A DNA stretch of 64,000 bases from a plasmid: sequence record NZ_CP028351.1; one strand, 5' to 3'. The notes below the pieces were generated by a model. It worked only from the letters and a program-made list of their open reading frames with translations, had not been told where the DNA came from and did not search any database. Below, one piece after another: positions 30 to 56,905 of the stretch. The first letter of the stretch is position 1; each line of letters begins with the position of its first letter. Both the position numbers and the translations under genes were made by a program.

Positions 30-1067
30 TCAGCCGGGAATATCGGGTTCCGCATATTGTTCCATGAACTCCACCATAGCGCCTTTATGCGCATCCACAT
101 GACGGATATAACGCATTAGTGTCTCCGGTTTTTTCCAGGTGCCTTCCTGCATGATGCGGGCGACAGGATAGCCTTTATCTGCCATATCCTGAGCTGCGCC
201 CACCCTGGCACTGTGGCCACTCCAGCCGGTATAGCGATTCTTGTTAGCCTTTATTGCACTGCCTTTTCCAGCCGTTCGCCAGGCTCGATTAAAAATCTGT
301 TCCAGTGCCCGGGTACTCATCGGTTTTTCTGTAATCAGCACCCGGCCTGAGCGGTGTACTGCATTGAACAGCCAGGCATCAGGCTGACTGGAAAGGCCGG
401 ACGCCTCGATCCACTCTTCAAGTCGCCGGGTTGAATGAGCGCTGAGCGCCTTGATCAATCCGCCAGTCTGCACAAGGGTTTTTGTCCACGCCACATCCAG
501 AATGATACGACCATCACCGGCACGCATCACATCACGCACCCGCAACCGTGACAGTTCACTGATACGCAGTAGCGTTGCATAGGCGACATGCAAAAAAGCC
601 AGATCACGAAGCACCTGGAGATTGTCAGAACCTGACCACTGTTTATCCAGCACCATCAGGTCTGTCAGCCTGAAGGGCACGGCCTGGCCTGCACGCTCGC
701 CATTCACAACGGCAACCCGGTTAATCTTCTTCATGGTACGGAAAACCAGCGGAGAACCATTCGGCACAGGCAAGCCGGCGTTACGGTGTAACATCGAAAT
801 CAACGCTGCATGGGACGTGACGGTCGAAGAAGCCCGTCCGCTTTCAGCCAGAAAAGAGAGATAGTCACGCAAATCCTCTGCGCTCATCGGCAGAAAAGTA
901 CGCTGGTTATCTTCTGACCACTGATTGCAGATTCGCATGACGCTAAGCAGCTGTCGCCAGGTATTGGGGGAAAAGGCCTCTTTGTCCTGGACGAACTGTC
1001 TGAGCCGTTCGGTGATATCACTGTTCCGGTTCACCGTCAGACGGGTTAACGGCACTATCTCACTCAT
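30..1067 (-). CDS. Cre-like tyrosine site-specific recombinase
   Basis: The 345-aa ORF is colinear with P1 Cre. Shared blocks include LLSVxR, AFLxxAYxTLLRIxExxRxRVxD, WSGHSARVGAAxDMA and the LMRYIR Tyr box. The start codon is the complement of 1065-1067. Confidence 0.9.
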   Translation of the reverse strand: MSEIVPLTRLTVNRNSDITERLRQFVQDKEAFSPNTWRQLLSVMRICNQWSEDNQRTFLPMSAEDLRDYLSFLAESGRASSTVTSHAALISMLHRNAGLPVPNGSPLVFRTMKKINRVAVVNGERAGQAVPFRLTDLMVLDKQWSGSDNLQVLRDLAFLHVAYATLLRISELSRLRVRDVMRAGDGRIILDVAWTKTLVQTGGLIKALSAHSTRRLEEWIEASGLSSQPDAWLFNAVHRSGRVLITEKPMSTRALEQIFNRAWRTAGKGSAIKANKNRYTGWSGHSARVGAAQDMADKGYPVARIMQEGTWKKPETLMRYIRHVDAHKGAMVEFMEQYAEPDIPG

Positions 1068-12001: not shown

Positions 12002-13414
12002 TCATCCTGATATTTCAGCGCTATATATCTGCGTTTCTGCGTCAGCATGGCGGCGGTAACCGGCACCCGGATGTGGCAACGCCAGCCGCGGTCCCTTTCC
12101 GAACAACTTTTCACGCAGCGTGCCGGGCTGATAGTTCTGCTTGTAGACGCCGCGCTTTTGCAGTTCCGGCACCAGCAGTTCCACCACGTCAGTGAAGGTT
12201 TCATGCGTCACAGCGTAGGCGAGGTTAAATCCGTCAACGTCGGTCTCTTCAACCCAGCTCTGCAGTTCATCCGCTACGGTTTCGGCGCTGCCCACCAGCA
12301 ACGGGCCAAAACCGCCAATGCCCACCCAGTCAGCCAGCCCCTGCACCGTCCACTGACGAGTGGGATCGGCGGTGGAGAAGGTCTCGACCGCCGACTGAAT
12401 GGCGTTGGTATGCAGATGCTTCAGTACCTGATCCGGCTGATACTGCCCGAAATCGATACCGGTCCAGCCCGAGATGAGCGCCAGCGCGCCTTCGTAACTG
12501 ACATAGCTTTTGTACTCCTGCCATTTCGCCTGCGCCGCCAGGTCGGTTTCACCCACAATCACCGTCTGCAGATTGAAGATCAGGATGGAACGCGGGTCAC
12601 GTCCCGCCTCAGCGGCCCTGCGGCGAATATCTGCCACAGTTTTCTTCAGCAGTACTTTCGACGGTGCCGCGACAAATACACATTCAGCATGCTCCGCTGC
12701 AAAGGCCTTACCGCGGCTGGAGGCACCGGCCTGGTATAGCACCGGCGTGCGCTGCGGTGACGGCTCGCAAAGATGAATACCCGGCACCTGGAAAAACGTT
12801 CCCTGATGGTTAATCGGATGGATTTTGTTGGGGTCGCTGAATATATGACGTTCACGATCGCGCAGGACAGCGTCGTCTTCCCAGCTTCCCTCCAGCAGCT
12901 TATAGATAACCTGCAGATACTCATCGGCGTAGTCGTAGCGCGCATCGTGATCGGTCTGAGCCTGATGCCCGATATTGCGTGCGCCACTTTCCAGGTAGGA
13001 GGTGACAATATTCCAGCCAATACGGCCTTTGGTCAGATGATCCAGGGTCGAGATCCGCCGCGCAAACGGGTAGGGGTGTTCAAACGACAGCGAGGCGGTC
13101 AGGCCAAAGCCCAGGTGTTCCGTCACCATGGCCATCGGCGTGATTAACGCCAGCGGATCGTTTACCGGTACCTGTGTAGCCTGACGGATGGCGGCATGGT
13201 TATTACCGTTGAGCACGTCATAGACACCCAGCACATCAGCAATAAACAGCCCATCAAATTTACCGCGTTCCAGCAGGCGCGCTAAATCGGTCCAGTACGC
13301 CAGATCTTTATACTGCCATGAGCGGTCACGCGGATGCGCCCACAAGCCGGGTGACTGATGACCAACACAGTTCATATCGAAAGCATTCAGGCGAATTTCA
13401 CGTTGCGATGACAT
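12002..13414 (-). CDS. LLM-class FMNH2-dependent monooxygenase (NtaA/DszA family, paralog 2)
   Basis: LNAFDMNCVGHQSPGLWAHPRDRSWQYKDLAYWTDLARLLERGKFDGLFIAD. ATG 13414 (MSSQREIRL, AGGAG RBS) is preferred over the track start 13507. Confidence 0.85.
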   Translation of the reverse strand: MSSQREIRLNAFDMNCVGHQSPGLWAHPRDRSWQYKDLAYWTDLARLLERGKFDGLFIADVLGVYDVLNGNNHAAIRQATQVPVNDPLALITPMAMVTEHLGFGLTASLSFEHPYPFARRISTLDHLTKGRIGWNIVTSYLESGARNIGHQAQTDHDARYDYADEYLQVIYKLLEGSWEDDAVLRDRERHIFSDPNKIHPINHQGTFFQVPGIHLCEPSPQRTPVLYQAGASSRGKAFAAEHAECVFVAAPSKVLLKKTVADIRRRAAEAGRDPRSILIFNLQTVIVGETDLAAQAKWQEYKSYVSYEGALALISGWTGIDFGQYQPDQVLKHLHTNAIQSAVETFSTADPTRQWTVQGLADWVGIGGFGPLLVGSAETVADELQSWVEETDVDGFNLAYAVTHETFTDVVELLVPELQKRGVYKQNYQPGTLREKLFGKGPRLALPHPGAGYRRHADAETQIYSAEISG

Positions 13415-13482
13415 AGCGACTCCTGAGCGGATGCGGCAATCGCTTGCCGCCCACCTTTTAATATGTGTTTTATAAGGAAGAT

Positions 13483-14895
13483 TCAGTAAGTGAGTGAGCC
13501 GGGACATCGCTCGCTGACAGGCAGGGATAGGGCATTCAGCAGTTGCCGTGCAACAGACTCGGCATGTTCCGCCACCTGCGGTAATCCCATCAGCTCGCCA
13601 AAGCGACCCCGTGCGGCAGGCCCGGCAACATACAGTCCGGGATTCGCTTCATCGTTCACATTCAGCGTCTGAGACAGTGCATTAACCTGGATCCCCAGCG
13701 CCAGCGGGTCAGGCTGGATAACGCCATCGCCATGGAGCTGACGCAGCAGCGCATTGCTGTTAAGCAGCGCGTTGTGTGCAGGGCCGGTGGTGACAATAAC
13801 TTTCTCCACCTCCAGCCTGTGCGATTGCGCGCCACGCAGGCGCAGCGTTAGCCGGAGCGTTGCGCCATCCGATTCAGCGGCGATAAGGCGCGCCGCCAGC
13901 AGAGTCAGCTGACCGCTGGCCTGCTGTTGGCTGAGGATCTGGCTAACCTGCGGCGCAATCCGGTAGCGATGAACATCCCACCAGGGGCGCAGATGATGCA
14001 GAAAGCGCTGCTGCTCATGCAGCGACAGACTCTGCCAGATGCGCTGACCGTTACGGCGGATATCATCCAGCACCAGCTGCCAGGGCAGATTCAGCGCCGC
14101 CGCCTGTTTAACCTCCTGTCGCACACGATGTAGCCAGCCGCGCGCGGTGGCGGATTGCGGCTGACTGTAATCCAGAGCGTAGGTCTCATTGTTGCCACTC
14201 AGGTTGGCACGCGGCAGCTGGCCACGACGTGAGAAGACGGTAATCTTTCCACGGTGCTGCTGACGATGCAGCGACGCCACCATATCGGACATGGTCAGCC
14301 CTGAACCGATAATCGCCACCCGATCGTCAGGGACGACCTGCGCCAGCGCGTCGCGCTGCCAGGGATTGGCAATCAAACCCGGATGGCCCTGTAGCGGCCT
14401 CAGCAGAGCAGGCAGATCCGGCGGGGGATGGCTGGTCGCCAGCACCACCTGATCGGCATGAATCTGCTGCCCGGAGGCCGTGGTCACCACGCCATTCTTA
14501 AAGGCAACCGCACTGTCACGCAGATGGCTCAGTTTCACCGGTGAGTGCTGCTGCTGATGAACAAACTGCGCATTGACCCAGCGTCCGAACTCACCGCGTT
14601 GCGGGTAGACGTTGCCGTCATGCCACAGCGCTTCCGGATCGGCCCTGAAGTCGGCAGAGGCGCGATAGTCGCGATCGAAAACACCCTCTTCATCACCGGC
14701 GAGCTGCATTCTGCCGGCCGGCACATTAATGCGGTGGGCCGGATCGGTGGTACCGTATGCCACGCCCTGCGCCAGCTGTGCGCGAGGTTCAATCACCGTC
14801 ACCTGTAATCCCGCCTGGCCAGCGCGGGCCAGATGGATCGCCAGCGCAGTGCCGGTGAACCCGCCGCCGATAATGACAATCTGCTGTTGTGACAT
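13483..14895 (-). CDS. FAD/NAD(P)-binding oxidoreductase (pfam13454-like Rossmann protein)
   Basis: N-terminal dinucleotide-binding motif IVIIGGGFTGTALAIHLAR. ATG 14895 (MSQQQIV...) is preferred over the track start 14976. Confidence 0.7.
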   Translation of the reverse strand: MSQQQIVIIGGGFTGTALAIHLARAGQAGLQVTVIEPRAQLAQGVAYGTTDPAHRINVPAGRMQLAGDEEGVFDRDYRASADFRADPEALWHDGNVYPQRGEFGRWVNAQFVHQQQHSPVKLSHLRDSAVAFKNGVVTTASGQQIHADQVVLATSHPPPDLPALLRPLQGHPGLIANPWQRDALAQVVPDDRVAIIGSGLTMSDMVASLHRQQHRGKITVFSRRGQLPRANLSGNNETYALDYSQPQSATARGWLHRVRQEVKQAAALNLPWQLVLDDIRRNGQRIWQSLSLHEQQRFLHHLRPWWDVHRYRIAPQVSQILSQQQASGQLTLLAARLIAAESDGATLRLTLRLRGAQSHRLEVEKVIVTTGPAHNALLNSNALLRQLHGDGVIQPDPLALGIQVNALSQTLNVNDEANPGLYVAGPAARGRFGELMGLPQVAEHAESVARQLLNALSLPVSERCPGSLTY

Positions 14896-14920
14896 AAGCG
14901 AGCCTTTTTCTGTTAACTGA

Positions 14921-16093
14921 CTAGCTGGCGCTGGCCTGTTTAGCCGGGCGACGGTCGCCGCCGATGGTTTCACCAAACGGACCTGTATTGACGCTGCGCT
15001 GTTTCTTTTCGGCGTTGGCGGCCAGCGGCAACAACGGCATTACCAGCTCCGCAAAGCGGTGTGCCTCTTCAAGATGCGGATAGCCGGAGAAGATAAAGTT
15101 CTCAATGCCCAGTGCCTGATACTCCCGGATGCGATCGGCAACCTGCTGCGGATTGCCGACCAGCGCAGTCCCTGCACCGCCGCGCACCAGGCCAACGCCC
15201 GCCCAGAGATTGGGACCGATGCGCAGGCTCTCACGCGACCCCTGATGCAGGGCACTCATCCGCGCCTGACCGGCGGAGTCCATGCGGGCAAAGATTTTCT
15301 GCGCGGCGGCGATAGTCTCTTCATCCAGATGAGAAATCAGCCGATCGGCCGCCGCCCAGGCTTCCTCTTCCGTTTCACGTACAATGACATGTAAGCGGAT
15401 GCCATAAGAGAGCGTGCGGCCATTCTCCTGTGCTCGCTGACGAACCACCGCCAGCTTCTCCGCGACCTGTTCAACCGGCTCGCCCCACGTCAGATAGGTG
15501 TCGATCTGATTCGCCGCAACGTCGATAGCAGCCTCAGATGAGCCACCGAAATAGAGTGGCGGACCGTCTTCCTGAACCGGCGGGAAGAGGATCTCGGCAC
15601 CTTCCACGCGAATATGTTCGCCTTCAAAGTCTACCTTCTCGCCTTTCAGCAGGCGGGAGTAAACCTCAAGAAATTCTTTGGTCACCTGATAGCGCTCTTC
15701 ATGACTCAGGAAGATGCCGTCACCTTTGTTCTCTACCGGATCACCACCCGTGACCACGTTGATCAGCAACCGGCCGCCGGAGAGACGGTCCAGCGTCGCC
15801 GCCATCCGCGCCGCCAGGCTGGGCGGTTGCAGGCCGGGACGCACGGCCACTAAATAGCGCAGCTTTTTGGTGATCGGTGCCAGTGCCGAGGCGACCAGCC
15901 ATGAATCCTCGCAGCTTTTACCGGTCGGGATTAACACACCGTAGTAGCCCAGATTATCTGCCGCCAGCGCAACCTGCTGTAAATAGTGTAAATCGACTGC
16001 TCTGCCGCCTTCGGTGGTACCCAGATAGCGCCCGTCGCCGTGGGTAGGCAGAAACCAGAAGAGGTTGAGGTTTTCCTGTGTCGCATGACTCAT
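14921..16093 (-). CDS. ssuD: FMNH2-dependent alkanesulfonate monooxygenase
   Basis: Near-colinear with E. coli SsuD ([10 protein letters not shown], LIPTGxSCEDxWLVA, [23 protein letters not shown]). RBS AAGGAA. Confidence 0.9.
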
Positions 16094-16162
16094 TAGCAGA
16101 TTCCTTTATAACGATATTAAAATTTATCACATAGGGTTAATCCCTTTTGTTATATAGCCTCT

Positions 16163-16178
16163 AGCAGGATGCGTGCCA
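16163..16178 (-). promoter_or_regulatory. candidate sigma54 (-24/-12) promoter driving the ssuD operon
   Basis: The minus strand reads TGGCAC-gcatc-CTGCT, i.e. GG-N10-GC with a perfect -24 TGGCAC. It sits about 70 nt upstream of the ssuD ATG, in the divergent region next to the sigma54 activator gene. Confidence 0.4.
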
Positions 16179-16367
16179 CTGCGATGAAATATTTTTATTA
16201 TCAAAATTCAATAACTTATCGTTTTTGTGGCAGACGCTAATCTGCTGCATTCGCAACAGGCATAGTTGCATCCTGCTGCATTGGCAACAATCTGACTCGT
16301 TCCGCCTCTCGTTTCGGCGTTAGCGGCGCGGTATGGTCATGGTTTTCCCGTTCATCCGGTAAATGAG

Positions 16368-18257
16368 ATGCAGATATCCAGTCCTGAGTTAATTGACCCC
16401 GCATCGCGCGCCTTTAAAAGCGTGCTGGATCAGCTCGCGCCCACCGATGCGACGGTACTGATCATCGGTGAAACCGGCACCGGCAAAGAGGTGATGGCGC
16501 GCTATCTGCATCACCATAGCGCCCGCAGCCGGCAGCCTTTTCTGGCGGTTAACTGCGGCGCACTTACTGAGAGCCTGGCGGAGTCGGAGCTGTTTGGTCA
16601 TGAGAAGGGTGCCTTTACCGGCGCACAGGACAGGCATCGTGGCTGGTTTGAGGCGGCAGAGGGCGGCACGCTGCTGCTGGATGAGATTGGTGAGCTAAGC
16701 CCGTCGCTGCAGGTGAAGCTGCTACGCGTGTTGCAGGAGCGTGAGATTACCCGCGTCGGATCGTCCAGGCCGGTAAAAGTCAATGTGCGGGTCATTGCCG
16801 CGACCAACCGGGATCTGGCGGTGGCTATCCGTGAACGGCGATTCCGCGAAGATCTCTACTACCGGCTGAATGTGGCCAGCGTCACACTGCCGCCGCTGCG
16901 CCAGCGCTGCGAAGATATTCCGGTGCTGGCCAGTCACTTCCTGCAGATCTATGCGCGCCGTCTTGGTCGTCCTCAGCTGCGCCTCAGTGATGAAGCCATG
17001 ACAGTGCTGATGAACTACAGCTGGCCGGGCAACATCCGTGAACTGGAGAACACGCTGCACAACGCCGTGCTGCTCAGCAAAACCTCACTGGTCACGCCGC
17101 AGCAGCTGCGGCTAAGCCCTCTTGCGGGGAGCGACCTGCCGCAGGGAGAGGAGGCGCTTGATCAGTTTTTACGCCAGCAGATGCAGCAGAGTGATACACC
17201 GCTCTATCCCCGGGTAATTGCTGCGCTGGTGAAAAATGCGCTGGAACTCACCCAGGGTAATCAGTTACAGGCGGCCGCGCTGCTGGGTATCAGCCGACAT
17301 ACATTGCGCACACAGCTGGGACATCTGGGGGTGATTAAACCGCGCCGCGGTTCAGTGCGTCAGCGCGACATATCGACTGGTCAGCAGCCTGAGCGGGAGC
17401 GGGAACTGCGTATTGGTTATCAGAAATTTGGCAACCTTGGCATTCTGAAAGCCCGCCAGTCGCTGGAGCAGCAGCTGGCCGGGCAGGGTGTCAGCGTCAT
17501 GTGGAGTGAATTTCCTGCGGGTCCGCAGCTTCTGCATGCACTGAGCAATAAGGAGATCGATTTCGGGACCACCGGTGAAGTTCCCCCCTTGTTTGCGCAG
17601 GCCAGCAACAGTCCCATGGTCTATGTTGCCTGGGAACCTGCCGCCCCGCAAAGCGTGGCGCTGCTGGTGCCTAACAGCAGCCCGGTTAAGCAGATTGGCG
17701 ATCTCAGAGGCAAACGTATTGCCGTGAATCGCGGCTCCAACGTTCACTATCTGTTGTTGCAGATTCTGGATGAGGCGGGTTTAGCGCTGGATGATGTGCG
17801 CATTGTCTATGCCCCGCCTAAATATCCGCTGACGCCCAGCGATCTCAACGCGGTGGATGCCTGGATGATGTGGGATCCGTTACTCAGCGATGCGGAGAAC
17901 AGCGGAGAGTTCAGGGTGATTGCGGATGGCACAGGCCGGGTCAATAACCATCAGTTTTACCTGGCTGAGCGCGGATTTTCGACGCACTCTGGCGATCTGT
18001 TACAGGTTCTGCTTAGCGCACTGGGGCAGACCGGCCGCTACATTGATGCGCATCGTGCTGAAGCTGCCGGGCTGCTCTCAACGGAACTCGGCATCTCTGC
18101 AACCTCACTGATGCACGCCTTAGCCCGGCGCAGCCATCAGACCCAAAGAATGAACCTGGCCATCATCCGGGAACAGCAGACTATCGCCGACCGCTTCTAT
18201 GCGCTGGGGTTATTCAGTCGCGCTATTCGCGTACGCGAGTCGGTCTGGCATCCATAG
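16368..18257 (+). CDS. sigma54-dependent activator with C-terminal SsuA-like (NMT1/periplasmic-binding-fold) domain
   Basis: AAA+ sigma54-interaction domain with Walker A GETGTGKE and the GAFTGA motif (GHEKGAFTGAQ). A Fis-type HTH (LLGISRHTLRTQL) follows. Residues ~340-629 align with the adjacent SsuA (WSEFPAGPQLLHALSNKEIDFGTTGEVPPLFAQA vs WIEFPAGPQMLEGLNIGSIDLAATGDAPPTFAQA). There is no N-terminal receiver/sensor domain. Confidence 0.85.
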   Translation: MQISSPELIDPASRAFKSVLDQLAPTDATVLIIGETGTGKEVMARYLHHHSARSRQPFLAVNCGALTESLAESELFGHEKGAFTGAQDRHRGWFEAAEGGTLLLDEIGELSPSLQVKLLRVLQEREITRVGSSRPVKVNVRVIAATNRDLAVAIRERRFREDLYYRLNVASVTLPPLRQRCEDIPVLASHFLQIYARRLGRPQLRLSDEAMTVLMNYSWPGNIRELENTLHNAVLLSKTSLVTPQQLRLSPLAGSDLPQGEEALDQFLRQQMQQSDTPLYPRVIAALVKNALELTQGNQLQAAALLGISRHTLRTQLGHLGVIKPRRGSVRQRDISTGQQPERERELRIGYQKFGNLGILKARQSLEQQLAGQGVSVMWSEFPAGPQLLHALSNKEIDFGTTGEVPPLFAQASNSPMVYVAWEPAAPQSVALLVPNSSPVKQIGDLRGKRIAVNRGSNVHYLLLQILDEAGLALDDVRIVYAPPKYPLTPSDLNAVDAWMMWDPLLSDAENSGEFRVIADGTGRVNNHQFYLAERGFSTHSGDLLQVLLSALGQTGRYIDAHRAEAAGLLSTELGISATSLMHALARRSHQTQRMNLAIIREQQTIADRFYALGLFSRAIRVRESVWHP

Positions 18258-18352
18258 CGTTTTTTTAGCTAAGCATCGAACATTTCATCGCTAAGCGCTT
18301 CAAGCCGCGTTTGTTATGTTGCGCAGACAACAACCAGACTCAGGAACGAGAG

Positions 18353-19300
18353 ATGAAAAAAGTTTTACTCAGCGCTTTGATTATTGCCGCCCAGGCGGGT
18401 TTCGCGTTCAGCACCCAGGCAGCAGAAAAACCCGAGACAGTGAATATCGGTTTTCAGAAAGCCAATATTTTCGCGCTGCTGAAGTATCGCGGCACGCTGG
18501 ATCAGGAATTTAAAAAGCAGGGCATTGCGGTGCACTGGATTGAGTTCCCGGCCGGACCGCAGATGCTGGAGGGCTTAAACATCGGCAGTATCGATCTGGC
18601 CGCTACCGGCGACGCGCCACCGACGTTCGCGCAGGCCGCACAGGCCGATCTGGTTTATCTGGGACACTCGCCAGCTAACCCAAAAACCGAAGCGATTGTG
18701 GTGCCCGCTGACTCCCCGATTAAAAGCGTGGCGGATCTCAAAGGCAAGCGTGTGGCGCTGAACAAAGGCTCTGACGTTAACTATCTGCTGGTCACCGCGC
18801 TGGAGCAGGCAGGGCTGACCTATAAAGACATTACGCCGGTCTATCTCCCCCCTGCTGATGCGCGCGCCGCTTTCCAGCGCGGCGCGGTGGATGCCTGGGT
18901 CATCTGGGATCCCTACTACGCTGAAGTGGAAACTAATGCCCACGCGCGGCTGATTAAAAATGCTGAAGGGCTGGTGCCACACTACACCTTCTATCTTGCC
19001 AGTCGTAAGTTCGCGGAGCGCTATCCACACATCGCTTCTGAGGTGGTGGATGAGCTGGGTTCACTGAGTCAGTGGGCTAATCAAAATCAGGAAGAAGCCG
19101 CAAAAATCATGTCCACCTCAACCGGCCTGCCGCAGCCGATCTGGCAGCGCGCGCTGGCAAGGATGCCGTTTGGCGCGGAGCGGATGACGCCAGAAGTCTT
19201 CACCCAGCAGCAGGCGCTGGCAGATACCTTTACCCGGATTGGTCTGTTGCCGGTGAAAGTTGATATCCGCAGCGCGACATGGTCGCAGGATAAGAAGTAG
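18353..19300 (+). CDS. ssuA: aliphatic sulfonate ABC transporter substrate-binding protein
   Basis: Signal peptide MKKVLLSALIIAAQAGFAFSTQA. SsuA/NMT1-family blocks are present. ATG 18353 has RBS AGGAACGAGAG. No ssuBC genes lie adjacent. Confidence 0.8.
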   Translation: MKKVLLSALIIAAQAGFAFSTQAAEKPETVNIGFQKANIFALLKYRGTLDQEFKKQGIAVHWIEFPAGPQMLEGLNIGSIDLAATGDAPPTFAQAAQADLVYLGHSPANPKTEAIVVPADSPIKSVADLKGKRVALNKGSDVNYLLVTALEQAGLTYKDITPVYLPPADARAAFQRGAVDAWVIWDPYYAEVETNAHARLIKNAEGLVPHYTFYLASRKFAERYPHIASEVVDELGSLSQWANQNQEEAAKIMSTSTGLPQPIWQRALARMPFGAERMTPEVFTQQQALADTFTRIGLLPVKVDIRSATWSQDKK

Positions 19301-23393: not shown

Positions 23394-24923
23394 TCAGTCT
23401 GCCTGAGACTCAAACGCCGATCTGACCGCTTCCACGATACGCCCGGACAGCGTCGCATCGTCCAGCAACGGGAACGTTTTTTTAAGCTTGCCGGAGATTT
23501 GCCAGCCATTTTCCTTCAGCGAACGAATAATGCGACTCGCGTCCTGATCGGGCATTTCAATGACTTCCTTCAGGCGCTGCTGTGCATGCTGAAATATCAC
23601 CAGTACGCGCGCTTCATCAGCCATCTCTTTTCGGACGGTGTGCTCTATAACTTTGCAGGTATAGAGCACATGCTCGGTTAAGTCGGGATAGCGCCAGGCG
23701 AAACGGGCATCCTCATAGTCGCTGAAACTGAAGTTGCTCAGCGTGCCATCTTCATAGGTTTTGAGCTCACTAAATCGATAGCAGCCTGCATAGCGCCGCA
23801 TCAGCCGTTTCGAGAACACGTCCAGCGTGCGGTCGTAGCCGACCCGAAAATCCATCGAGCTGGTGATGGTGGCTGAGACCGGCAGGATGACTCCATCCGG
23901 TATCGCCCCGTCACGAATCAGCGTGTCATTGATTAAAAACCGGTGGATGCGACCATTGCCATCACGCATCGGATGGATATAGACGAAGCCAAACGCAATA
24001 ACCGCGGCACGGGCCAGTGGCGCAGCGCCCTGTGTCGCCAGGTCAAAGGCTTTCAGGCCCTGCATGAAGCGAGGAACATCATCATAGTGTGGCGCAATAT
24101 AGTGGACGATATCTTCACGCATTGTCGACTGCCCGACAAACACGGGTGAGCGGCGCAGGCCCAGTCCCAGTGCGTCCTGGCCAAGAATGCCCTGCTGTAT
24201 GGTATGCAGGCTGCTATCACTGAGCGGATCGTCAAGCTGTCCGCAATACTGCGCAATAACGTGAGCAAAACGCTGAATGCGGTCGCCCTGATCCGACTCT
24301 TTCTCAATCAGAAAACTGGCGCGCGACTCTTTAAATGTCAGCCAGCTGGCAGTGCGCATCAGAATGTCTGCACCAAAGGCGTTATCCAGATCGTTTAAGG
24401 CATCATGGAGATCGAACGTAAGCGCCTGCTCAACGGCCGCGGTTCTGCGCACCAGAGGGCAGAAATCCACCGATCCCGGCAGGTTATCATTGATGCGCCA
24501 GCGTCTGACGCGCTTTACTGTTGTTCGGGTCAGACAGGCTTTGGATGAAATGGCCTCAATATAGCCTCCATTGGTGACATCCGGTACCTGCAGCGTGTTG
24601 CCGGTCAGCCATTCATAGAAAAAGCCCGCCCGCCGCGCATACTGTCCGAACGGCTCCTGACGGCACCACGCCTCCAGCGGTTCCGGGCCGACAGCGGTAA
24701 ACAGGCGGGCAAAAAACTCCAGGTGAATCTCTTCATACTTAAGACCAAAGGCAAAGTGACCGGCAAAATCATCTTCCGGTTGATAGCCAGGTGGATAATG
24801 ATTTTCCACCTGCCCCTGACTCTCATGATGAGAGCGTACCGTTCCGATAGCTGACTTAACGCGTAATGGCTGCGCCAGTTTGATAGCATAACGTTCGCGC
24901 AGTGCGCTGAAGCCGACCAGCAT
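23394..24923 (-). CDS. Fic/DOC-family protein (long N-terminal extension)
   Basis: The Fic active-site motif IHPMRDGNGRIHRF (HxFx[D/E]GNGRxxR) lies at ~aa 300 of 509. Confidence 0.8.
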   Translation of the reverse strand: MLVGFSALRERYAIKLAQPLRVKSAIGTVRSHHESQGQVENHYPPGYQPEDDFAGHFAFGLKYEEIHLEFFARLFTAVGPEPLEAWCRQEPFGQYARRAGFFYEWLTGNTLQVPDVTNGGYIEAISSKACLTRTTVKRVRRWRINDNLPGSVDFCPLVRRTAAVEQALTFDLHDALNDLDNAFGADILMRTASWLTFKESRASFLIEKESDQGDRIQRFAHVIAQYCGQLDDPLSDSSLHTIQQGILGQDALGLGLRRSPVFVGQSTMREDIVHYIAPHYDDVPRFMQGLKAFDLATQGAAPLARAAVIAFGFVYIHPMRDGNGRIHRFLINDTLIRDGAIPDGVILPVSATITSSMDFRVGYDRTLDVFSKRLMRRYAGCYRFSELKTYEDGTLSNFSFSDYEDARFAWRYPDLTEHVLYTCKVIEHTVRKEMADEARVLVIFQHAQQRLKEVIEMPDQDASRIIRSLKENGWQISGKLKKTFPLLDDATLSGRIVEAVRSAFESQAD

Positions 24924-37949: not shown

Positions 37950-40900
37950 TCAGAAGTGATATGACAGGCCGATCATACCACTGTAATCCGTTTTAAATTC
38001 ACCACCCAAACTGCTCTCTACTTTCGCATTTAGTGAAAGGCCAGGCGCGACAATACCTTCCAGCCCTACACTGCCACGATAACGGTTATCTGACCAGGCG
38101 CTGTATTGCCGGTTTGACTGACGATCGGAAAGTGTGGTTGTGGAGCCATTATTACCAGGTGAATACTGATAGGCCAGACTGGCATTGACGTTAATATTCG
38201 GCATTAATGCGCCCAGACCGCGTTTCTGCACCATGAACCCGCTGCTGGTGAAGTAAGGTGTGGATGAACTTAACGAAACTGACGCATCTTCCCCTTTCAG
38301 GGTATAGCCGGACATGACACCAGCGGTCACACCAACAAACGGTGAGATAAACAGAGTATCGTTAGCCAGCGCAAACTCATAGCCAGTGCGCAGGCTGCCT
38401 GCCAGCATATGGCTGTCCTTTTTCATGCCATTAATATTTAAAGCAGGATCCAGCGTTATCTCCTGATTCAGATACATATAACGACTGGCCGCATCAAAGA
38501 ACCATCCGGCATCAGCCTGCCAGGAATAAAATGCACCGACAGTAGCCAGTCGATGCTTTTCATGACCCTCCCCTTTTACCTCACCCTGCGTATAACTGGC
38601 GCTGATACCGGCTGTTTGCTTGTCGCTGCGGGTATCCCAGCCCACATTCAGTGTTTGCTGGTTGACGTCGAGTCCAAGAAAATGCCCTTTTTTCTGCTCT
38701 ATTGTTGCCCATGATCCGCTGCTTTCTGGCGCGGCGCGCAGACTGTCAGTGCGGTTATGCAACTGACTGACCGCTTCACTGAAAATGTACTGCCGCGAGG
38801 CGATTAAGGCACGCGTGCGCTGGATCAATGGCAGGTTGTCGTAAACAGAGAACCAGTCATCCGGATTGAACGCCGGCTTTTTGGCTTCCTCTTCTGCTTT
38901 CGCTGCTTCCTCTTTCGCTTTTTTTTCAGCTTCGGCTTTTGCCTCAGCCTCTGCTTTGGAATTAGCTTCTTCCTCTGCTTTCGCTTTCTCTACAGCAGCT
39001 TGCTCAGCAGTAGCATTATCCGCTGACGAAGCATCTGTAGCAGGCGCTGGCTCTGGCGTTACTTCTGGCTCAGGGGTAACTTCCGGTGCTGGCGACAATT
39101 CCGGCTCAGGCGTGACTTCCGGTGCTGGTGTCAGTTCTGGCGCTGGCGTCGGTTCCGGCGCAGGCGTCACTTCCGGTGCTGGCGTCGGTTCCGGCTCAGG
39201 CGTGACTTCCGGCTCAGCCGACTTATTACTTTCCAGCACCCACAAAACACGGTCCTTATTGTCTTTCACCTGATAATTGGGGGTGTAAACGCTAAATCCG
39301 CTGTAGCTGTCTGCAAAAGAGAAATAGCTGTGCGACGTGCCAGCAGGTGCATCAACCATTACCAGATCCTGGGCCAGCGCAACTTCGTCTTCACTTCCGA
39401 TTAGCAGACTTACGTCCAGCAGGTTGTCGCCACCACTCACCGAATTTTTTACAATCAGTTTGTCGCTTTCCAGTGTGGAGGGTTTAACGCCTAACATCAG
39501 ATTTAACCCGGTCGCATCCAGCGTATCGACATTCAGTGTTTTGGCGCTCCAGCGGCCTGAAGGCACCATTGAAAGTGTCGAACCACGTCTCGCCAGAAGT
39601 GAACTGATATTACTGTTGCCGGTCATCGTCCAGTTCGCATTGGCATCCAGCGTCATAAGGCTGCTGCCTGTTGATGTTACGGCCCCCTGATAGTTAACCT
39701 TACCAAGATAAAGTGAGGCATTGTTAGCCAACTGAACATCGCCTTCCACTTCGCTGGCGGGCAGCAGTGCCAGTGCATCCGCGCTTCGCACTGGCTGACT
39801 GCAGGAAACATCATCAGAATAGATGGCAGAATAGCAACGCCAGCTTTTCTCGCCTGCAAGCTCGCTATCGTTGTAGCCAAAAGAGAGTTTTGACGAATCA
39901 GCAGCAACAATGTTGGCTTTCACGCCAGCATATTCTCCCACCTGGAAATTCGCACCAGTACCTACATTGATCTGATCGGCTTTAAACAGTGAAGTGTTCC
40001 AGTCGTCATCAACGATAACGCCTCCCGCATGTGGAACCGGCTGACCAGAGAGCACCACCGTGCCATTCTCAACATTGAGATTGCCATTCAGGTTCATGCC
40101 CCCCGTAAGTGCAGTAATGGCCGTAGCGTTGTGCGGCAGGATATTCACGTTCATCACGCCGTTAAGCGCCTTCTCCAGGGTTTCTCCCAGAAAGCCTCGG
40201 AATACCTGAATATTAAGCTGTGTGAGGCGATGGTTGATCGCTTCATCCGCATCGGTTCCAAGATACGTCCAGGTCGATGTCGAGGTTTTATCGGTTGGGA
40301 AATACCAGTAGGATGAGGTATTTAATTGAAAATACTCGGTATCTTTGGTGTAGGGGTTTTTATACACATAGATATTACCTGGTGTTCCTTTTGGGTTACT
40401 GCCCGTAAATGTATAAAAGGGAACGTCTGCGGCGTTATAGCCCGTAATGTTCAGCGTTGCTGCGGCAGCACTGTGGTTTACCAGCGTAGCATCGCTATCT
40501 GTATGGTTAATCCTTTTAAAACTCAGCGCGTTTCCATTCAAATCTAAACGGCCCCCACGATAGCCAAAGTAGATCTGATCAGTCGCAACCTGACTTTCAT
40601 CATTCAGTACCACGGTTGGCCGACCACTCACTAAAGTGACTGACGAAAACGCCTGTTTATTGCCTGAGGCATCAGCTTGTTGATCGAGGATAACGGTACC
40701 CTCTCCCACATTCAGTGAACCCGAGTTTGTGCCAATGGCATTGATATGCAGTGTACCTGCGCCGATTTTATGCAGCGCATCGCTTGCCACGCCATTGACC
40801 TGCCACAGAACCTCTTTGTCCGCGTCAACCTCAATGCCGCCGCCAGCCCAGGTCGCATTGACGCCGTCGGCAGACGAGACAGTGTAGTTATTGGAAAACT

Positions 40901-50404: not shown

Positions 50405-51142
50405 ATGAAAAAAAAAAGTTTTAAATTTTTGATCTCCTGTTTGCTCACTTGCGCAATGACTTCGTCTGCCTTTGCCAGTGTGACCATCATTGGTACCCGG
50501 GTAATCTACCCCGCTTCCGAGAAAGAGGTTACTGTTCGTCTAGATAATCGCGGCGATCATCCCGCGCTTGTTCAGGCATGGGTTGATGACGGAAATCCTG
50601 ACGAAGCAGTAGATAAAATAAATGTTCCTTTCGTTTTATTACCTCCGGTTTTCCGTATGGAGGCGAATAAAGGACAAACGTTACGGATTGTTTTTACGGG
50701 CGCCAGTCTGCCCACCGGCAAAGAGTCTATCTTCTGGCTTAATGTCCTTGATATACCTCCTCGTGATAAAAGTCTGGCTAATCAGAACCAGCTGCAAATG
50801 GCAATCCGGAGTCGCATCAAGATTTTTTATCGTCCAGTTCAGTTTGATACAGCCCAGGCCAATAAAGCTGCGTCAGGACTGGTATGGCGTCACGGTCAAA
50901 AACCTAATTTTCTTTCCGCAACTAACAACTCACCTTTCTACGTTAACGTCTCACAGATTAATGCAGAAGATAGCGCAGGTCATAAATTAGTCAGTGAAAA
51001 AGGGGAAATGCTGGCACCAGGCGAAACAAAAGAGTTCCCGTTGAAAGGCATGAGCACAAGTCAAATAAAAACAACATTTAAGTATCAGTATCTGGACGAC
51101 TTTGGTGCAGCACGTAAGGTTGAAAGCAAAATAAACGAGTAG
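50405..51142 (+). CDS. fimbrial periplasmic chaperone (PapD/FimC family)
   Basis: Signal peptide. Conserved blocks GTRVIYP, LVQAWVDDGNP and FWLNVLDIPP of the PapD-like family. Confidence 0.9.
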   Translation: MKKKSFKFLISCLLTCAMTSSAFASVTIIGTRVIYPASEKEVTVRLDNRGDHPALVQAWVDDGNPDEAVDKINVPFVLLPPVFRMEANKGQTLRIVFTGASLPTGKESIFWLNVLDIPPRDKSLANQNQLQMAIRSRIKIFYRPVQFDTAQANKAASGLVWRHGQKPNFLSATNNSPFYVNVSQINAEDSAGHKLVSEKGEMLAPGETKEFPLKGMSTSQIKTTFKYQYLDDFGAARKVESKINE

Positions 51143-51168
51143 CTTTTGATAATTATCCAGGGGAAATT

Positions 51169-53754: not shown

Positions 53755-53793
53755 TGGGGTAACATCATGTTTTTAATTTCAGGAAAGAAAGTA

Positions 53794-54828
53794 ATGCGCC
53801 TCATTGGCTCAGTTTCATTAATATTAAGTCTGATGCTGATAGCTACTTTCAATGTTAATGCAGCGGGTACCTCAACGGATGTGACACTGACGTGTAAAAT
53901 AACATCAAGTACATCGTTAGTTGATGTGAGCTCATTGGGCATTAATATTTCAGCAGCTGTGCCAGTGGGTACGATCGTTTATAGCGGCACGGCAACTGCT
54001 AACTTCAAATGTGCTCTGGATAATTTGCAGCAGTACTTAGATGGATTAAGCGGTGAGGTCTATTTTAAGCGCAAGGCGATTGACGCGAGTGCCCTGGGTT
54101 ATGGATTGACGTTATATACTGGCTATGGCGGAGAGATGAGTACCGATGCCGCAAGTATTGCAACCGGTATCATGATTAGTACTTATGCCTTAACCAGCGG
54201 TGGAACCGTGGGCACCTATACAGATGTCTCTCTCAACGTACCCTATCAGATTGTAAAGACCTCCAACTCTATGTCAGCATCGACTTCACTAAAGAGCTAT
54301 GTAAACGCTTTTGACGTTGGTTCGTTAGTATCAGGTAAAGATGTATCATTCAACTTCACTAATATTAAAACAGGTATCACAGTTAAAGATCAGACATGCT
54401 CAGTCGCCGGTGATACCAATCTGCCTGTGCCATTAGGTAGTTACACCACGAACCCTACTAGCGGTTTAGGATCAGGAATCGGCCAGACTAGCGCTACAAC
54501 CGCGTTTAATATTCAGCTTAACTGTGAGGCACTTCTTTCGGGTTCGTTTGATGTGATGATGCAGTTGGATGGTGATGCGTCTAGCGGATTATCGGATTTG
54601 GGTGTGGTGGCACTTAATTCGGCCTCAACTGCGAGTGGTGTCGGTGTACAAATCCTCAATGAAAATCAGCAGCCGATAGCACTCGCTACACCGTTTAACA
54701 TTGCGGCTTACCCGCTCTCATCTGCCTTAATCACAGTGCCACTCTATGCACGTTATTATCAGACGGCGACGAAAATAAATCCTGGCTCGGCCAATGCAGT
54801 AGCAACGTATACGCTTAGTTACCAGTAA
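53794..54828 (+). CDS. fimbrial tip adhesin (two-domain, FimH-like architecture)
   Basis: Signal peptide. ~340 aa, a length consistent with lectin plus pilin domains. ATG 53794 (AGGAAAG RBS) is preferred over the track start 53767. Confidence 0.7.
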   Translation: MRLIGSVSLILSLMLIATFNVNAAGTSTDVTLTCKITSSTSLVDVSSLGINISAAVPVGTIVYSGTATANFKCALDNLQQYLDGLSGEVYFKRKAIDASALGYGLTLYTGYGGEMSTDAASIATGIMISTYALTSGGTVGTYTDVSLNVPYQIVKTSNSMSASTSLKSYVNAFDVGSLVSGKDVSFNFTNIKTGITVKDQTCSVAGDTNLPVPLGSYTTNPTSGLGSGIGQTSATTAFNIQLNCEALLSGSFDVMMQLDGDASSGLSDLGVVALNSASTASGVGVQILNENQQPIALATPFNIAAYPLSSALITVPLYARYYQTATKINPGSANAVATYTLSYQ

Positions 54829-55582: not shown

Positions 55583-56905
55583 ATGAAATTTCATAATCAG
55601 AACATTGCATTACTGGCACTAACCTGTACTCCATTTTTCACATCTGCAACCAACCTGCAGCAAGCTGCTCAGGCTGCATTGAGCTATGACTCAGCATTAC
55701 AATCCAGTCAGATGACCAGTTCAGCAGATAAACAAAAATACTGGCAAGGCATGGCCGGAATGTTGCCAACATTAACTCTGGAAGGAAACTGGGATCGTCA
55801 GGAACAGCCTGATAAGAAATATCAGAGTGGGGTAACCAACCACAGTTACGATCTCAGCGTCAGACAACCGCTATTTGATATGAGTAAATATGCCGGATGG
55901 CGTAAAGGTGTTGCTATTGCCAACACTGCTGAAGCACAGGCAAAACAGGCTGAAGAGAAATTACTTAGCGCTATTAGCAATGCTTATTTTACAGTGCTTT
56001 ATCAGCAGGAAGTTTTACAGGCCGCCAAAGCCGCCAGCCATAACTTTAGGCAACAAGAGCAAAAACTTCAGACCGGGTTAATCAATGGGCAGAATACCCG
56101 CACTGAACTGGACGAGGCAAAAGCTAACTACGCTCTGGCACAGGCTAAGGAAATAGAAGCTGGCAATCAGCTATTGCTGGCAGGCGAGGCATTTCGCCGT
56201 TTATCAGGTATCAGCCCGGACACTGTAGAACCAGTGAATTTTCAGTGCCTGAAAGCATCGCCTTATTCTTCTCTGACCGATGCAATTAATGCCAGCCAGC
56301 AGCGTAATACTGATATTAAAATTGCGCTTTTTCAGAATGATCAGGCAGACGCAGATGTTCTTGCGGCTGACGGCGCACACATGCCAGTGGTCTCGCTCTA
56401 TGCGAGATACGGCAAGAACTGGAGTCGTAATGACGACGACGACAATATCCTGTATGACGCAATCTTCGGGACGAACTCAAAGAGTAATAACCTCCAATAT
56501 GGCGTAAACGTTTCTGTTCCATTGTTTGCCGGCGGCAGTCAGGTTTCACAATCCTTTGAAGCAGCTTATCGTCGTCAGGCAGCAAAGTATTCCACGATGG
56601 AAGCACAACGCAAGGCGGCAACCGATACCCGTTCTGCCTGGCTTAGCCTGACCAATGGCAAAGCCTTAATCAGTGCTCAAAAGAATGCCGTCGACTCAGC
56701 ACGTGAAAAAGTGGTGTCGGTCCAGTATGGCCGTGAAATGGGCTTTCGCACCGTTAATGATGAACTGGATGCTCAGCAAAAATATTACACCGCACTCAAA
56801 GATCAGGCTGAAGCACGCCTAAGTTATCTCAATGCCCTAATCAATCTGGCGCAAAGCACTGGATCGTTATCGCTCGACATGCTGAATTTTTTTCAGTGCC
56901 GTTAA
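55583..56905 (+). CDS. TolC-family outer-membrane efflux protein
   Basis: Signal peptide. Two OEP repeats with coiled-coil segments. 440 aa. Confidence 0.85.
   Translation: MKFHNQNIALLALTCTPFFTSATNLQQAAQAALSYDSALQSSQMTSSADKQKYWQGMAGMLPTLTLEGNWDRQEQPDKKYQSGVTNHSYDLSVRQPLFDMSKYAGWRKGVAIANTAEAQAKQAEEKLLSAISNAYFTVLYQQEVLQAAKAASHNFRQQEQKLQTGLINGQNTRTELDEAKANYALAQAKEIEAGNQLLLAGEAFRRLSGISPDTVEPVNFQCLKASPYSSLTDAINASQQRNTDIKIALFQNDQADADVLAADGAHMPVVSLYARYGKNWSRNDDDDNILYDAIFGTNSKSNNLQYGVNVSVPLFAGGSQVSQSFEAAYRRQAAKYSTMEAQRKAATDTRSAWLSLTNGKALISAQKNAVDSAREKVVSVQYGREMGFRTVNDELDAQQKYYTALKDQAEARLSYLNALINLAQSTGSLSLDMLNFFQCR

Follow-up and report, generated by a model that had tools for sequence, protein, structure and literature searches.

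A conserved sigma-54 activator with an SsuA-type domain after its HTH, a candidate sensor for organosulfur scavenging

We identify, in a 64,000-nucleotide stretch of plasmid DNA (NZ_CP028351.1; hereafter the window), a sigma-54 activator in which an AAA+ module and an HTH are followed by a domain of the SsuA substrate-binding family. We propose that this protein is probably a widely conserved one-component sigma-54 enhancer-binding protein (EBP) for organosulfur scavenging, functionally equivalent to Pseudomonas SfnR but with a built-in SsuA-type 'Venus flytrap' input domain. A bolder version, which we regard as plausible though short of probable, is that it represents a new class of one-component sigma-54 activators, in which an importer-derived Venus-flytrap domain placed after the HTH directly senses a C1 or short-chain sulfonate (or sulfone) in the cytoplasm and thereby controls assembly of the AAA+ ring. 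Literature searches on EBP-SsuA fusions, on Sigma54_activat plus NMT1 and on the sulfur genes of pPag1 found no description, and the fusion family, conserved in many bacteria, is apparently undescribed in the literature searched. The gene and its parts are as follows.

16368..18257, plus strand: fused sigma-54 activator gene, 629 aa, in the order AAA+, HTH, SsuA-like domain
16404..17114, plus strand: AAA+ sigma-54 interaction module plus lid, residues 13-249 (PF00158, PF25601), with Walker A GETGTGKE at 34-41, GAFTGA at 81-86 and Walker B at D105-E106
17148..17327, plus strand: helical DNA-binding domain, residues 261-320 (Fis-type HTH, Pfam match 287-314)
17334..17396, plus strand: flexible linker from HTH to binding-protein domain, residues 323-343 (from pLDDT and dN/dS)
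17397..18254, plus strand: SsuA-type substrate-binding domain, residues 344-629, with pocket residues Q352, G385, G403, S457-N458 and W502

The order AAA+, HTH, SsuA fold, which the earlier note had read from the translation, proved real in domain searches and is conserved across homologs. In Pfam, Sigma54_activat (PF00158) matches residues 13-172 (232.7 bits, cutoff 20.2), AAA_lid_14 (PF25601) residues 178-249 (84 bits), HTH_8 (PF02954) residues 287-314 (30.8 bits, cutoff 22) and NMT1 residues 374-482. In NCBIfam, the SsuA_fam model TIGR01728 covers residues 347-627 at 164.4 bits, barely above its cutoff of 163.5, and PRK11553 covers residues 343-629 at 233 bits, below its cutoff of 299. No NCBIfam equivalog model reached its cutoff for the regulator, the best (NifA, FlbD, NorR and NtrC) all scoring far below, and its NCBIfam matches included no SfnR model. 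The same note had stated that no N-terminal receiver or sensor domain is present, and we agree: the ORF opens at the first start codon past an upstream stop and the AAA+ module begins at residue 13, which leaves no room for such a domain, and the start codon is invariant in an alignment of 14 genera. The Walker A, GAFTGA and Walker B motifs are unchanged in 27 homologs (alignment A4), with GAFTGA missing only from the distant homologs P0161 and P0181, and Foldseek matched the AAA+ module to ZraR (1OJL) and FlrC. In the AF2 model the HTH region forms helices at 261-273, 279-294, 299-306 and 310-320, and the linker has pLDDT below 50 over residues 323-342; its length varies among distant homologs.

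The genomic setting of the fused gene points to its targets. Divergent from it lies a predicted three-gene operon.

14921..16093, minus strand: SsuD/MsuD-type FMNH2-dependent alkanesulfonate monooxygenase, predicted first target (TIGR03565)
13483..14976, minus strand: FAD-NAD(P)-binding protein, predicted second operon gene (PF13454), its true start probably downstream of the listed TTG
12002..13507, minus strand: NtaA/DmoA-family FMN-dependent monooxygenase, predicted third gene (TIGR03860, 572 bits; synteny)

The ssuD-like product scores 619.6 bits against TIGR03565 (cutoff 518), and in each of the 22 Enterobacterales loci in which the upstream region is covered, its gene points away from the regulator; the FAD-NAD(P)-binding gene is conserved together with the ssuD-like gene in Enterobacterales and in the metagenomic locus L083. 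In the loci compared, the fused gene always adjoins genes for flavin-dependent organosulfur monooxygenases, ssuD/msuD-like and often sfnG, msuE and msuC-like. Serratia carries sfnG within the predicted target operon (597 bits), and additional sfnG-like genes occur in the Erwinia, Lonsdalea and Entomohabitans loci. In Azospirillum, palindrome pairs and sigma-54 promoters flank the regulator and face an msuE-sfnG operon (TIGR03566, 217 bits; TIGR04021, 620 bits) and a second operon with msuD-like and msuC/SfnB-like genes. Judged by this linkage, the fused regulator very probably switches on organosulfur-scavenging enzymes. Between regulator and operon lie the following elements.

16163..16178, minus strand: sigma-54 promoter (-24/-12) TGGCACGCATCCTGCT, 1 mismatch, ~70 nt upstream of the ssuD-like start codon
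16206..16218, unstranded: IHF-like site, ATTCAATAACTTA (in orthologs TATCAGTNAGTTA), with the promoter on one side and the upstream sites on the other
16243..16258, unstranded: putative upstream activator site 1, palindrome TGCTGCATTCGCAACA (from conservation)
16274..16289, unstranded: putative upstream activator site 2, TGCTGCATTGGCAACA, 31 bp from site 1
16104..16157, unstranded: inverted repeat CTTTATAAC ... 36 nt ... GTTATATAG, invariant, between the sigma-54 promoter and the ssuD-like start

Alignment of 14 genera shows this intergenic region conserved in islands, made up of the promoter, the paired palindromes and the IHF-like site. A sigma-54 site with at most 2 mismatches occupies the same position in 22 of 22 Enterobacterales loci, and the promoter GG/GC and its flanks are invariant in the 14-genus alignment; a sigma-54 promoter for the divergent ssuD-like gene, which the reporter test proposed in the earlier note presupposes, is thus present as a conserved -24/-12 site with paired upstream palindromes. 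The IHF-like site, matched to WATCARNNNNTTR by eye, is partly invariant, at columns T16208, A16210 and T16217 (alignment A3). The palindromes follow the consensus TGYTGCA-N2-TGCARCA and recur as pairs with 30-32 bp spacing in Azospirillum (L024 and L025) and in L083, and palindrome pairs accompany sigma-54 promoters in the metagenomic loci L083 and L081. No further palindrome of this consensus was found in the other intergenic regions of the window, and direct control by the regulator is improbable for its remaining sulfur operons, at 2.6-11.8 kb. An RNA element in the ssuD leader was considered and rejected: there was no Rfam match, and the inverted repeat folds no better than shuffled sequences (z=-0.48).

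The C-terminal domain has an SsuA-type fold, as had been claimed from the translation. It matches SsuA of E. coli (2X26, E=9e-55) and of X. citri (3E4R, E=1e-54), and its AF2 model superimposes on X. citri SsuA with MOPS (3KSX) with a TM of 0.88 and an rmsd of 2.6 A. A free ssuA lies directly downstream.

18353..19300, plus strand: free periplasmic SsuA paralog, start MKKVLLSALIIAAQAGFAFSTQA..., 95 bp past the regulator (PRK11553)

Paralogy to this neighbor (18311/18353..19300) is beyond doubt, the regulator's C-terminal 292 aa aligning without gaps at 38% identity (E=1e-77), but the 'long stretches of identical residues' once noted for the pair overstate that figure. The free SsuA scores 325.7 bits against PRK11553, above the NCBIfam cutoff of 299. 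It had been called orphaned, and rightly so, as a scan of the window's 36 larger ORFs turned up neither ssuB nor ssuC; nor was ssuBC found beside the fused gene in 25 loci. The fused domain is internal, following AAA+, HTH and a basic linker with no signal peptide, transmembrane or hydrophobic segment, features by which it is cytoplasmic.

For the binding pocket we took as reference Gln36, Gly68, Gly86, Ser141 and Trp185, the residues that contact the sulfonate in X. citri SsuA (PMC3839906). Q352, G385 and G403 are retained in 23 of 23 fused proteins, W502 in 22 and N458 in 21. Asn458 is the equivalent of Ser141; Asn also occurs there in 26 of 87 free SsuAs, so this exchange is neither proof nor disproof of sulfonate binding. 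The hydrophobic part of the pocket is remodeled, with F354, M500/M501 and L505/L506 differing from free SsuAs, which suggests that the ligand may lie outside the classical alkanesulfonates. F354 (in 21 of 23 fused proteins and few free SsuAs), E404 and L505/L506, the last in place of aromatics, are specific to the fused proteins, and E390, L482, F491, G494 and W558, kept by transport SsuAs, are lost. Purifying selection on the SsuA-like domain is as strong as on the ATPase (dN/dS 0.035-0.076 and 0.05-0.07, respectively; linker 0.26-0.87). Given a cytoplasmic SsuA fold, a largely retained sulfonate-binding core and strong purifying selection, ligand sensing by the C-terminal domain is the most reasonable reading, with sulfonates, sulfones and anti-inducing oxyanions all as candidate ligands.

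With the same regulator and promoter, the SsuA-like domain might instead act as an anti-activator that senses sulfur sufficiency (sulfate, sulfite or another oxyanion product), the protein being active by default in starvation and shut off by ligand. We think this unlikely, if well worth keeping in mind. The pocket would suit a smaller ligand, as its oxyanion-coordinating core (backbone NH dipoles, Gln, Asn) is kept and its alkyl-chain part changed, and constitutive activity is established for EBP cores that have no N-terminal domain (PspF, HrpRS). Expression of P. putida sfnFG is reportedly repressed by sulfate itself, independently of CysB, and such a response to sulfate rather than to substrate would favor anti-induction. 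However, the domain belongs to the SsuA family and not to the sulfate-binding Sbp/CysP family, and W502, kept in all but one fused protein, corresponds to a residue of X. citri SsuA that makes a stacking contact with the organic moiety. It is improbable, in our judgment, that the domain has ceased to bind ligand and is structural, serving dimerization, higher-order assembly on the paired sites or stabilization, with control exerted only through expression of the regulator, for example by CysB or Cbl. Periplasmic-binding-protein folds are established as oligomerization modules of LysR-type regulators, AF2 gave no defined docking, and Pseudomonas SfnR reportedly works without such a domain; yet the buried ligand-coordinating residues are invariant down to 32-45% identity, abnormal for a purely structural domain, and dN/dS is as low as that of the ATPase. 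Docking of the domain onto a protein partner (an ABC transporter ATPase or permease, or a monooxygenase), so that it reports transport or flux and not free ligand, has very little chance of being correct. Free SsuAs do dock onto SsuC, and ABC transporter genes lie next to the predicted regulon in several loci, but their type varies (MetNI-like or Liv-like), and the loss of the five positions that transport SsuAs keep suggests release from a transporter-docking constraint.

Full-length homologs of the regulator span more than 15 genera of Enterobacterales, where identity is 70-93%, and extend to Azospirillum and metagenomes, down to 32-49% identity. The fusion is found in Pantoea, Erwinia, Serratia, Rouxiella, Brenneria, Lonsdalea, Klebsiella, Raoultella, Kluyvera, Enterobacter, Pluralibacter, Pseudocitrobacter, Tatumella, Gibbsiella, Chimaeribacter and Azospirillum, and metagenomic 50%-cluster representatives are 32-44% identical to the HTH-SsuA part. 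The window's regulator is 99% identical to WP_013356551.1 from plasmid pPag1 of P. vagans C9-1. In 5,426 complete E. coli genomes no fusion homolog was found, only generic AAA+ similarity to zraR. Homologs are sometimes annotated by pipelines as 'aliphatic sulfonate ABC transporter substrate-binding protein'. That the fusion is a frameshift, an assembly error or a recent pseudogene fusion with ssuA, for which nothing speaks beyond the unusual domain order and such a label, is ruled out for practical purposes by the identical domain layout as one continuous ORF in hundreds of independent assemblies, across these genera and Azospirillum, and by strong purifying selection on both halves.

On this distribution the SsuA-like domain is an ancient fusion and not a copy of the adjacent ssuA. 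The description of the domain as a duplicated SsuA therefore fails in the sense of a local copy, since the fusion extends over many Enterobacterales, Azospirillum and metagenomic lineages and the neighboring ssuA is limited to part of Pantoea. Recent duplication is further countered by the neighbor's identities, 38% to the fused domain and 46% to E. coli SsuA, and by its presence in only some Pantoea loci, with a 1-nt insertion that frameshifts it in P. vagans C9-1. In a neighbor-joining tree of 112 SsuA-type domains, 17 fused domains form one solid clade and 6 fall in a loose group mixed with free SsuAs, the deep branches lacking the resolution to decide between one and multiple fusion events. 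Among 55 other loci with free ssuA genes, a search for unfused SfnR-like neighbors returned only a classical NtrC, in L069.

We propose the following sequence of events for the preferred reading, in which the domain senses ligand. Dimers would bind through the Fis-type HTH to both palindromes, which precede the divergent ssuD/msuD-like operon by ~100 and 130 bp, as the conservation of these sites suggests, and a bend at the IHF-like site would carry them to the sigma-54 holoenzyme that sits on the -24/-12 promoter. There the GAFTGA-bearing AAA+ ring would remodel the closed complex with ATP, as is established for this protein family. The SsuA-like domain would gate ring assembly or ATPase activity; this is the least certain step, and because the AF2 full model (pTM 0.48) has no confident contact between the domains, the gating mechanism is a guess. 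The gating domain would bind a small sulfonate-type oxyanion in the Q352/G385/G403/S457-N458/W502 pocket, with methanesulfonate or another short alkanesulfonate as the leading candidate. EBP cores are active on their own when no N-terminal domain is present, and the simplest model is therefore that the unliganded domain keeps the activator inactive and that closure on ligand relieves this repression.

Textbook enhancer-binding proteins are modular, with the sensor N-terminal to the ATPase, and we know of no characterized activator controlled from a domain past the DNA-binding domain on a disordered tether. If true, C-terminal control past the HTH would be a new signal-input topology for enhancer-binding proteins and would need a different gating geometry, for example at dimer-to-hexamer assembly on DNA. 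It would also supply the missing sensor for the SfnR-type branch of the sulfur-starvation response and show how bacteria decide on expression of the enzymes that desulfonate dimethylsulfone and methanesulfonate, a step of the terrestrial sulfur cycle whose signal input is unclear even in Pseudomonas. With the promoter, putative binding sites and candidate pocket residues defined, the idea is directly testable, all the more as members of the family occur in organisms that are well studied and easy to work with (Serratia marcescens, Erwinia amylovora, Klebsiella and Pantoea biocontrol strains). The regulator could also serve as a ready-made sulfonate biosensor.

Among known systems, SfnR (SfnR1/SfnR2) of P. 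putida DS1 and P. aeruginosa is reported to be a sigma-54 activator of the dimethylsulfone-methanesulfonate genes sfnFG and msuEDC (Endoh 2003, 2005; Kouzuma 2008; Lundgren 2019). Like it, the fused regulator is a sigma-54 EBP with no regulatory domain at its N-terminus and is genetically linked to sfnG, msuD/ssuD-type, msuC/SfnB-type and msuE genes, here on the basis of linkage, promoter and site conservation. Upstream sites lie in its own promoter-proximal region, another shared feature, which suggests autoregulation. SfnR, however, is not known to carry more than AAA+ and HTH, whereas the fused regulator has a 290-aa SsuA-type domain after the HTH, and the likeness drawn here is one of architecture and gene linkage. 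SsuA of the SsuABC importer (E. coli 2X26; X. citri 3E4R, 3KSX and 3KSJ) shares fold and family with the fused domain (E ~1e-54, TM 0.88) and the equivalents of Gln36, Gly68, Gly86 and Trp185, but the fused domain is cytoplasmic, lacks a signal peptide and an ssuBC partner, and is joined to a transcription factor. XylR/DmpR (V4R), NorR/FhlA (GAF) and TyrR (ACT-PAS) likewise place small-molecule control and an AAA+ sigma-54 activator in one polypeptide, and relief of intramolecular repression by ligand is a likely further similarity; their sensors, however, sit N-terminal to AAA+ on a structured B-linker, whereas here a periplasmic-binding-protein fold lies past the HTH on a disordered linker. 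PspF and HrpR/HrpS also begin with the AAA+ domain, but are controlled in trans by PspA or HrpV, whereas the fused regulator has a candidate sensor in cis. LysR-type regulators (CysB and Cbl, which also control sulfur-starvation genes) and LacI-type regulators carry an effector domain of binding-protein fold, C-terminal to the HTH in the LysR type and in the LacI type alike, but lack AAA+, act at sigma-70 promoters, use other HTH types and have domains not specifically of the SsuA family. To our knowledge, the LevR-type EBPs of Firmicutes are the only well-known EBPs with regulatory domains C-terminal to AAA+; these combine an N-terminal HTH with regulatory PRD/EIIA modules, which are controlled by phosphorylation and are not ligand-binding folds.

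We find that the regulator, a 629-residue protein in which an SsuA-like domain follows a sigma-54 AAA+ module and an HTH, represents a conserved protein family and not a local accident. Its gene, its modules and the free ssuA behind it are laid out as follows.

16368..18257, + strand, regulator gene, ORF of 629 aa
residues 13-172, Sigma54_activat (Pfam, 232.7 bits)
residues 178-249, AAA_lid_14 (Pfam)
residues 287-314, HTH_8 (Pfam)
from about residue 345, NMT1/SsuA-type matches (Pfam)
18353..19300, free ssuA, directly following the regulator gene and intact in the window

An earlier note had read this domain order, with no N-terminal sensor, from the sequence; the Pfam and NCBIfam searches and the start codon bear it out. 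The ORF opens at the first start codon past a stop, and its ATG is invariant among orthologs from 14 genera, which excludes an N-terminal receiver or sensor domain. Walker A (34-41), GAFTGA (81-86) and Walker B (105-106) are all intact and invariant across 27 homologs. Residues 343-629 are assigned by NCBIfam to the SsuA family (TIGR01728, 164.4 bits against a cutoff of 163.5; PRK11553, 233 bits against a cutoff of 299). The proposed paralogy with SsuA also holds: a gap-free alignment pairs the last 292 residues with the neighbouring SsuA (38% identity, E=1e-77), SsuA proteins of known structure from E. coli and Xanthomonas citri are matched at E about 1e-54, and in an AlphaFold2 model these residues adopt an SsuA fold, superposing on X. 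citri SsuA-MOPS (3KSX) with a TM of 0.88 and an rmsd of 2.6 Å. This model (mean pLDDT 81) contains three confident modules parted by disordered stretches at 251-260 and 323-342, with a pTM of only 0.48; its N-terminal module superposes on the AAA+ domains of ZraR and FlrC, and structure comparison returned no solved structure covering both N- and C-terminal modules. Plasmid pPag1 of Pantoea vagans C9-1 shares about 98% DNA identity with the region, and its regulator is 99.0% identical in protein.

Full-length homologs of 627-640 aa with an identical Pfam string and 70-93% identity occur in several Enterobacterales genera (Pantoea, Serratia, Erwinia, Rouxiella, Tatumella, Gibbsiella, Brenneria and Chimaeribacter), S. 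marcescens and E. amylovora being among the hosts. A scan that took a single genome from each species extends the range to Lonsdalea, Pseudocitrobacter, Raoultella, Enterobacter, Klebsiella, Kluyvera, Pluralibacter and Entomohabitans, and to an alphaproteobacterium, Azospirillum, whose homologs are 42-44% identical. Representatives of 50%-identity clusters, searched exhaustively, yielded further full-length fusions (P0123, P0124, P0132, P0142, P0161, P0172 and P0181), 32-44% identical over the HTH-SsuA part and 37-49% over the full length in the homolog alignment A1; no fusion homolog was found among 5,426 complete E. coli genomes. A neighbour-joining tree places 17 fused domains in one firm clade and others in a second, loose group (group II), the deep order being without support. 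The fusion is old, and its conservation across genera excludes an artefact. In alignment A1, P0161 and P0181 have lost the GAFTGA loop while keeping the HTH and SsuA-like domain, and P0181 has altered Walker regions as well; these two may be sigma-54-independent regulators or repressors.

The earlier note had further taken the fused domain for a duplicate of the adjacent ssuA, which we reject: the fusion is old, the free gene stands behind the regulator in only part of Pantoea, and free SsuA is closer to E. coli SsuA (46% identity) than to the fused domain (38%). Its description of this ssuA as orphaned holds in so far as the window ORFs that were scanned yielded no ssuBC. The free SsuA carries an unusual Asp at the Ser141 position, found in 3 of 87 free SsuAs, and its counterpart on pPag1 of P. 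vagans C9-1, 98.6% identical, is split into two ORFs by a 1-nt insertion (about 18400 in that locus, L085). It may bind a ligand other than an anionic sulfonate, or be decaying.

In every Enterobacterales locus that extends far enough upstream (22 loci), the regulator gene is divergent from an ssuD-like operon. Overall conservation of the 274-bp intergenic region is only 60%, with sharply conserved islands across 14 genera.

16178..16163, − strand, predicted sigma-54 promoter (-24/-12), TGGCACGCATCCTGCT, conserved island
16206-16218, IHF-like site, conserved island
16243-16258, palindrome 1, TGYTGCA-N2-TGCARCA, conserved island
16274-16289, palindrome 2, TGYTGCA-N2-TGCARCA, conserved island
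14921..16093, SsuD/MsuD-type alkanesulfonate monooxygenase, first gene of the operon (TIGR03565, 620 bits)
13483-14976, PF13454 FAD-NAD(P)-binding protein, directly after the ssuD-like gene

The promoter-like site recurs, with at most two mismatches, at the same position in 22 of 22 loci, and the palindromes, spaced by 31 bp, precede the predicted start by about 100 and 130 bp; a motif search of the window returned no other intergenic copies. Promoter, IHF-like site and paired palindromes form what is, as predicted here, a canonical enhancer-dependent promoter geometry. Azospirillum offers an independent check: its regulator is flanked on both sides by sigma-54 promoters and by matching palindromes, paired at a spacing of 31-32 bp. 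In the metagenomic locus L083, two perfect copies of the palindrome are separated by 30 bp.

Two further elements lie in this region. An inverted repeat, CTTTATAAC (16104-16112) and GTTATATAG (16149-16157), 36 nt apart and with core bases invariant in 14 genera, sits between the sigma-54 promoter and the ssuD-like start codon, one arm overlapping the predicted transcription start and the other abutting the Shine-Dalgarno sequence. Its RNA fold was not better than that of shuffles (z=-0.48) and no Rfam family matched the leader; an operator for a second regulator is the more likely reading. A weak sigma-70-like promoter (GTGCCA-17-TATTAT, 9/12, 16173-16201, + strand), of a kind whose matches are not above chance in number, coincides in part with the sigma-54 promoter on the other strand and lies upstream of both palindromes. 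Should the regulator gene be transcribed from it, regulator bound to DNA would occupy its own leader and act as an autorepressor, as is reported for SfnR.

The PF13454 protein (roughly 470-490 aa) is followed in the operon by an NtaA/DmoA-family monooxygenase. The pairing of the PF13454 gene with the ssuD-like gene is conserved in Enterobacterales and recurs in L083 (5137-6609; regulator 48% identical); the listed TTG start, which overlaps the ssuD-like gene by 56 nt, is probably placed too far upstream. Serratia has sfnG (dimethylsulfone monooxygenase, 597 bits, cutoff 383) inserted behind the first operon gene, and a similar extra gene is present in Erwinia, Lonsdalea and Entomohabitans. Azospirillum has msuE-sfnG-ABC transporter genes on one side of the regulator (TIGR03566, 217 bits; TIGR04021, 620 bits) and an operon with msuD-like and msuC/SfnB/DszC-like genes on the other, and in the group II locus L081 the palindrome motif and a sigma-54 promoter precede SfnB/MsuC-like genes. 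Because promoters and palindromes thus precede ssuD-, msu- and sfn-type genes across loci, the predicted regulon is one of two-component flavin-dependent desulfonation enzymes. In Pseudomonas, such enzymes are controlled by SfnR, a sigma-54 activator (Endoh 2003, 2005; Lundgren 2019). L081 also contains ribBA (riboflavin biosynthesis, 12590-13855) amid flavin-dependent monooxygenase genes, which suggests co-supply of the flavin cofactor.

On the plasmid, the operon belongs to a sulfur-scavenging island (30-19300) beside a tyrosine integrase (30..1067). Two SfnB-family genes, an NtaA/DmoA-family monooxygenase, a MetQNI-like ABC importer, another SfnB-like monooxygenase and an MFS transporter come before it, and within the island the palindromes mark the ssuD-like operon only. 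The stretch 23394-58190 is unrelated to the regulator.

23394..24923, Fic protein
about 24.7-32.5 kb, complete arnBCADTEF lipid-A modification operon
37950..41978, S6-peptidase autotransporter
43478..46384, pertactin-type autotransporter
50405..54828, chaperone-usher fimbrial genes
55583..58190, OEP and HlyD-family secretion genes

Comparison of the window gene with six Pantoea orthologs gave dN/dS values of 0.05-0.07 for the AAA+ module, 0.035-0.076 for the SsuA-like domain and 0.26-0.87 for the 21-residue linker joining HTH and SsuA-like domain; judged from sequence, the SsuA-like domain has kept a function. Sulfonate binding in X. citri SsuA involves Gln36, backbone contacts from Gly68, Gly86 and Ser141, and the hydroxyl group of Ser141, with Trp185 resting against the organic moiety (PMC3839906). 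The aligned residues in fused proteins are Q352, G385 and G403 (23/23 each), S457-N458 (N458 in 21/23) and W502 (22/23); Asn at the Ser141 position also occurs in 26 of 87 free SsuAs. Fused domains are set apart by the hydrophobic side of the pocket, with F354 in 21/23 where free SsuAs mostly have Gly, Ser or Ala, and with aromatics replaced by E404, M500/M501 and L505/L506. Positions conserved in transport SsuAs are lost at E390, L482, F491, G494 and W558. We infer that the fused domains retained the oxyanion site, reshaped the alkyl pocket and were released from a transporter-docking constraint.

Comparative analysis shows an intact sigma-54 activator core, paired sites at a predicted cognate promoter, a tether that is flexible, and a cytoplasmic SsuA-type pocket that is conserved and under selection. 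We propose that regulator dimers would occupy the two palindromes, that IHF would bend the DNA between these and the promoter, and that the AAA+ ring would activate sigma-54 holoenzyme at the ssuD-like promoter, with the SsuA-like domain as putative signal input. Gating by ligand from the C-terminus is the central mechanistic claim, and one that we infer. EBP cores without an N-terminal domain are intrinsically active (PspF, HrpRS), and in most EBPs that sense a ligand (XylR/DmpR, NorR) the signal relieves an intramolecular repression; we therefore favor the view that the flytrap, while open and unliganded, would block regulator assembly, and that this block would end once it closes on a small sulfonate. 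Given the msuD and sfnG context, the obvious candidate ligand is methanesulfonate. A serious rival has the opposite sign: a sulfur-sufficiency oxyanion (sulfate or sulfite) would switch the activator off. Sulfate itself is said to repress sfnFG in P. putida independently of CysB, as this rival would have it, and the remodelled, apparently smaller pocket is compatible with it and equally with induction by a sulfonate. A purely structural role for the domain is less likely, because the pocket is invariant.

The regulator has every sequence-level feature of enhancer-binding proteins and is predicted to function like SfnR. Its C-domain lies within the SsuA fold family; transport SsuA is secreted and partnered by ssuBC, however, and the fused domain is neither. 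A binding-protein fold after the HTH is normal in LysR- and LacI-type regulators but to our knowledge undescribed in a sigma-54 activator. LevR-type activators do have C-terminal regulatory domains, although of a different kind and with an N-terminal HTH, unlike the regulator. Public sequences carry generic names ('sigma-54-dependent Fis family transcriptional regulator' or 'aliphatic sulfonate ABC transporter substrate-binding protein'), no NCBIfam equivalog scored at or above its cutoff for the regulator, and a full-text literature search found no published description of an EBP-SsuA fusion; the family, its predicted regulon and its predicted binding site are apparently new to the literature. 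The finding would surprise specialists in sigma-54 regulation, and direct tests are feasible in tractable organisms.
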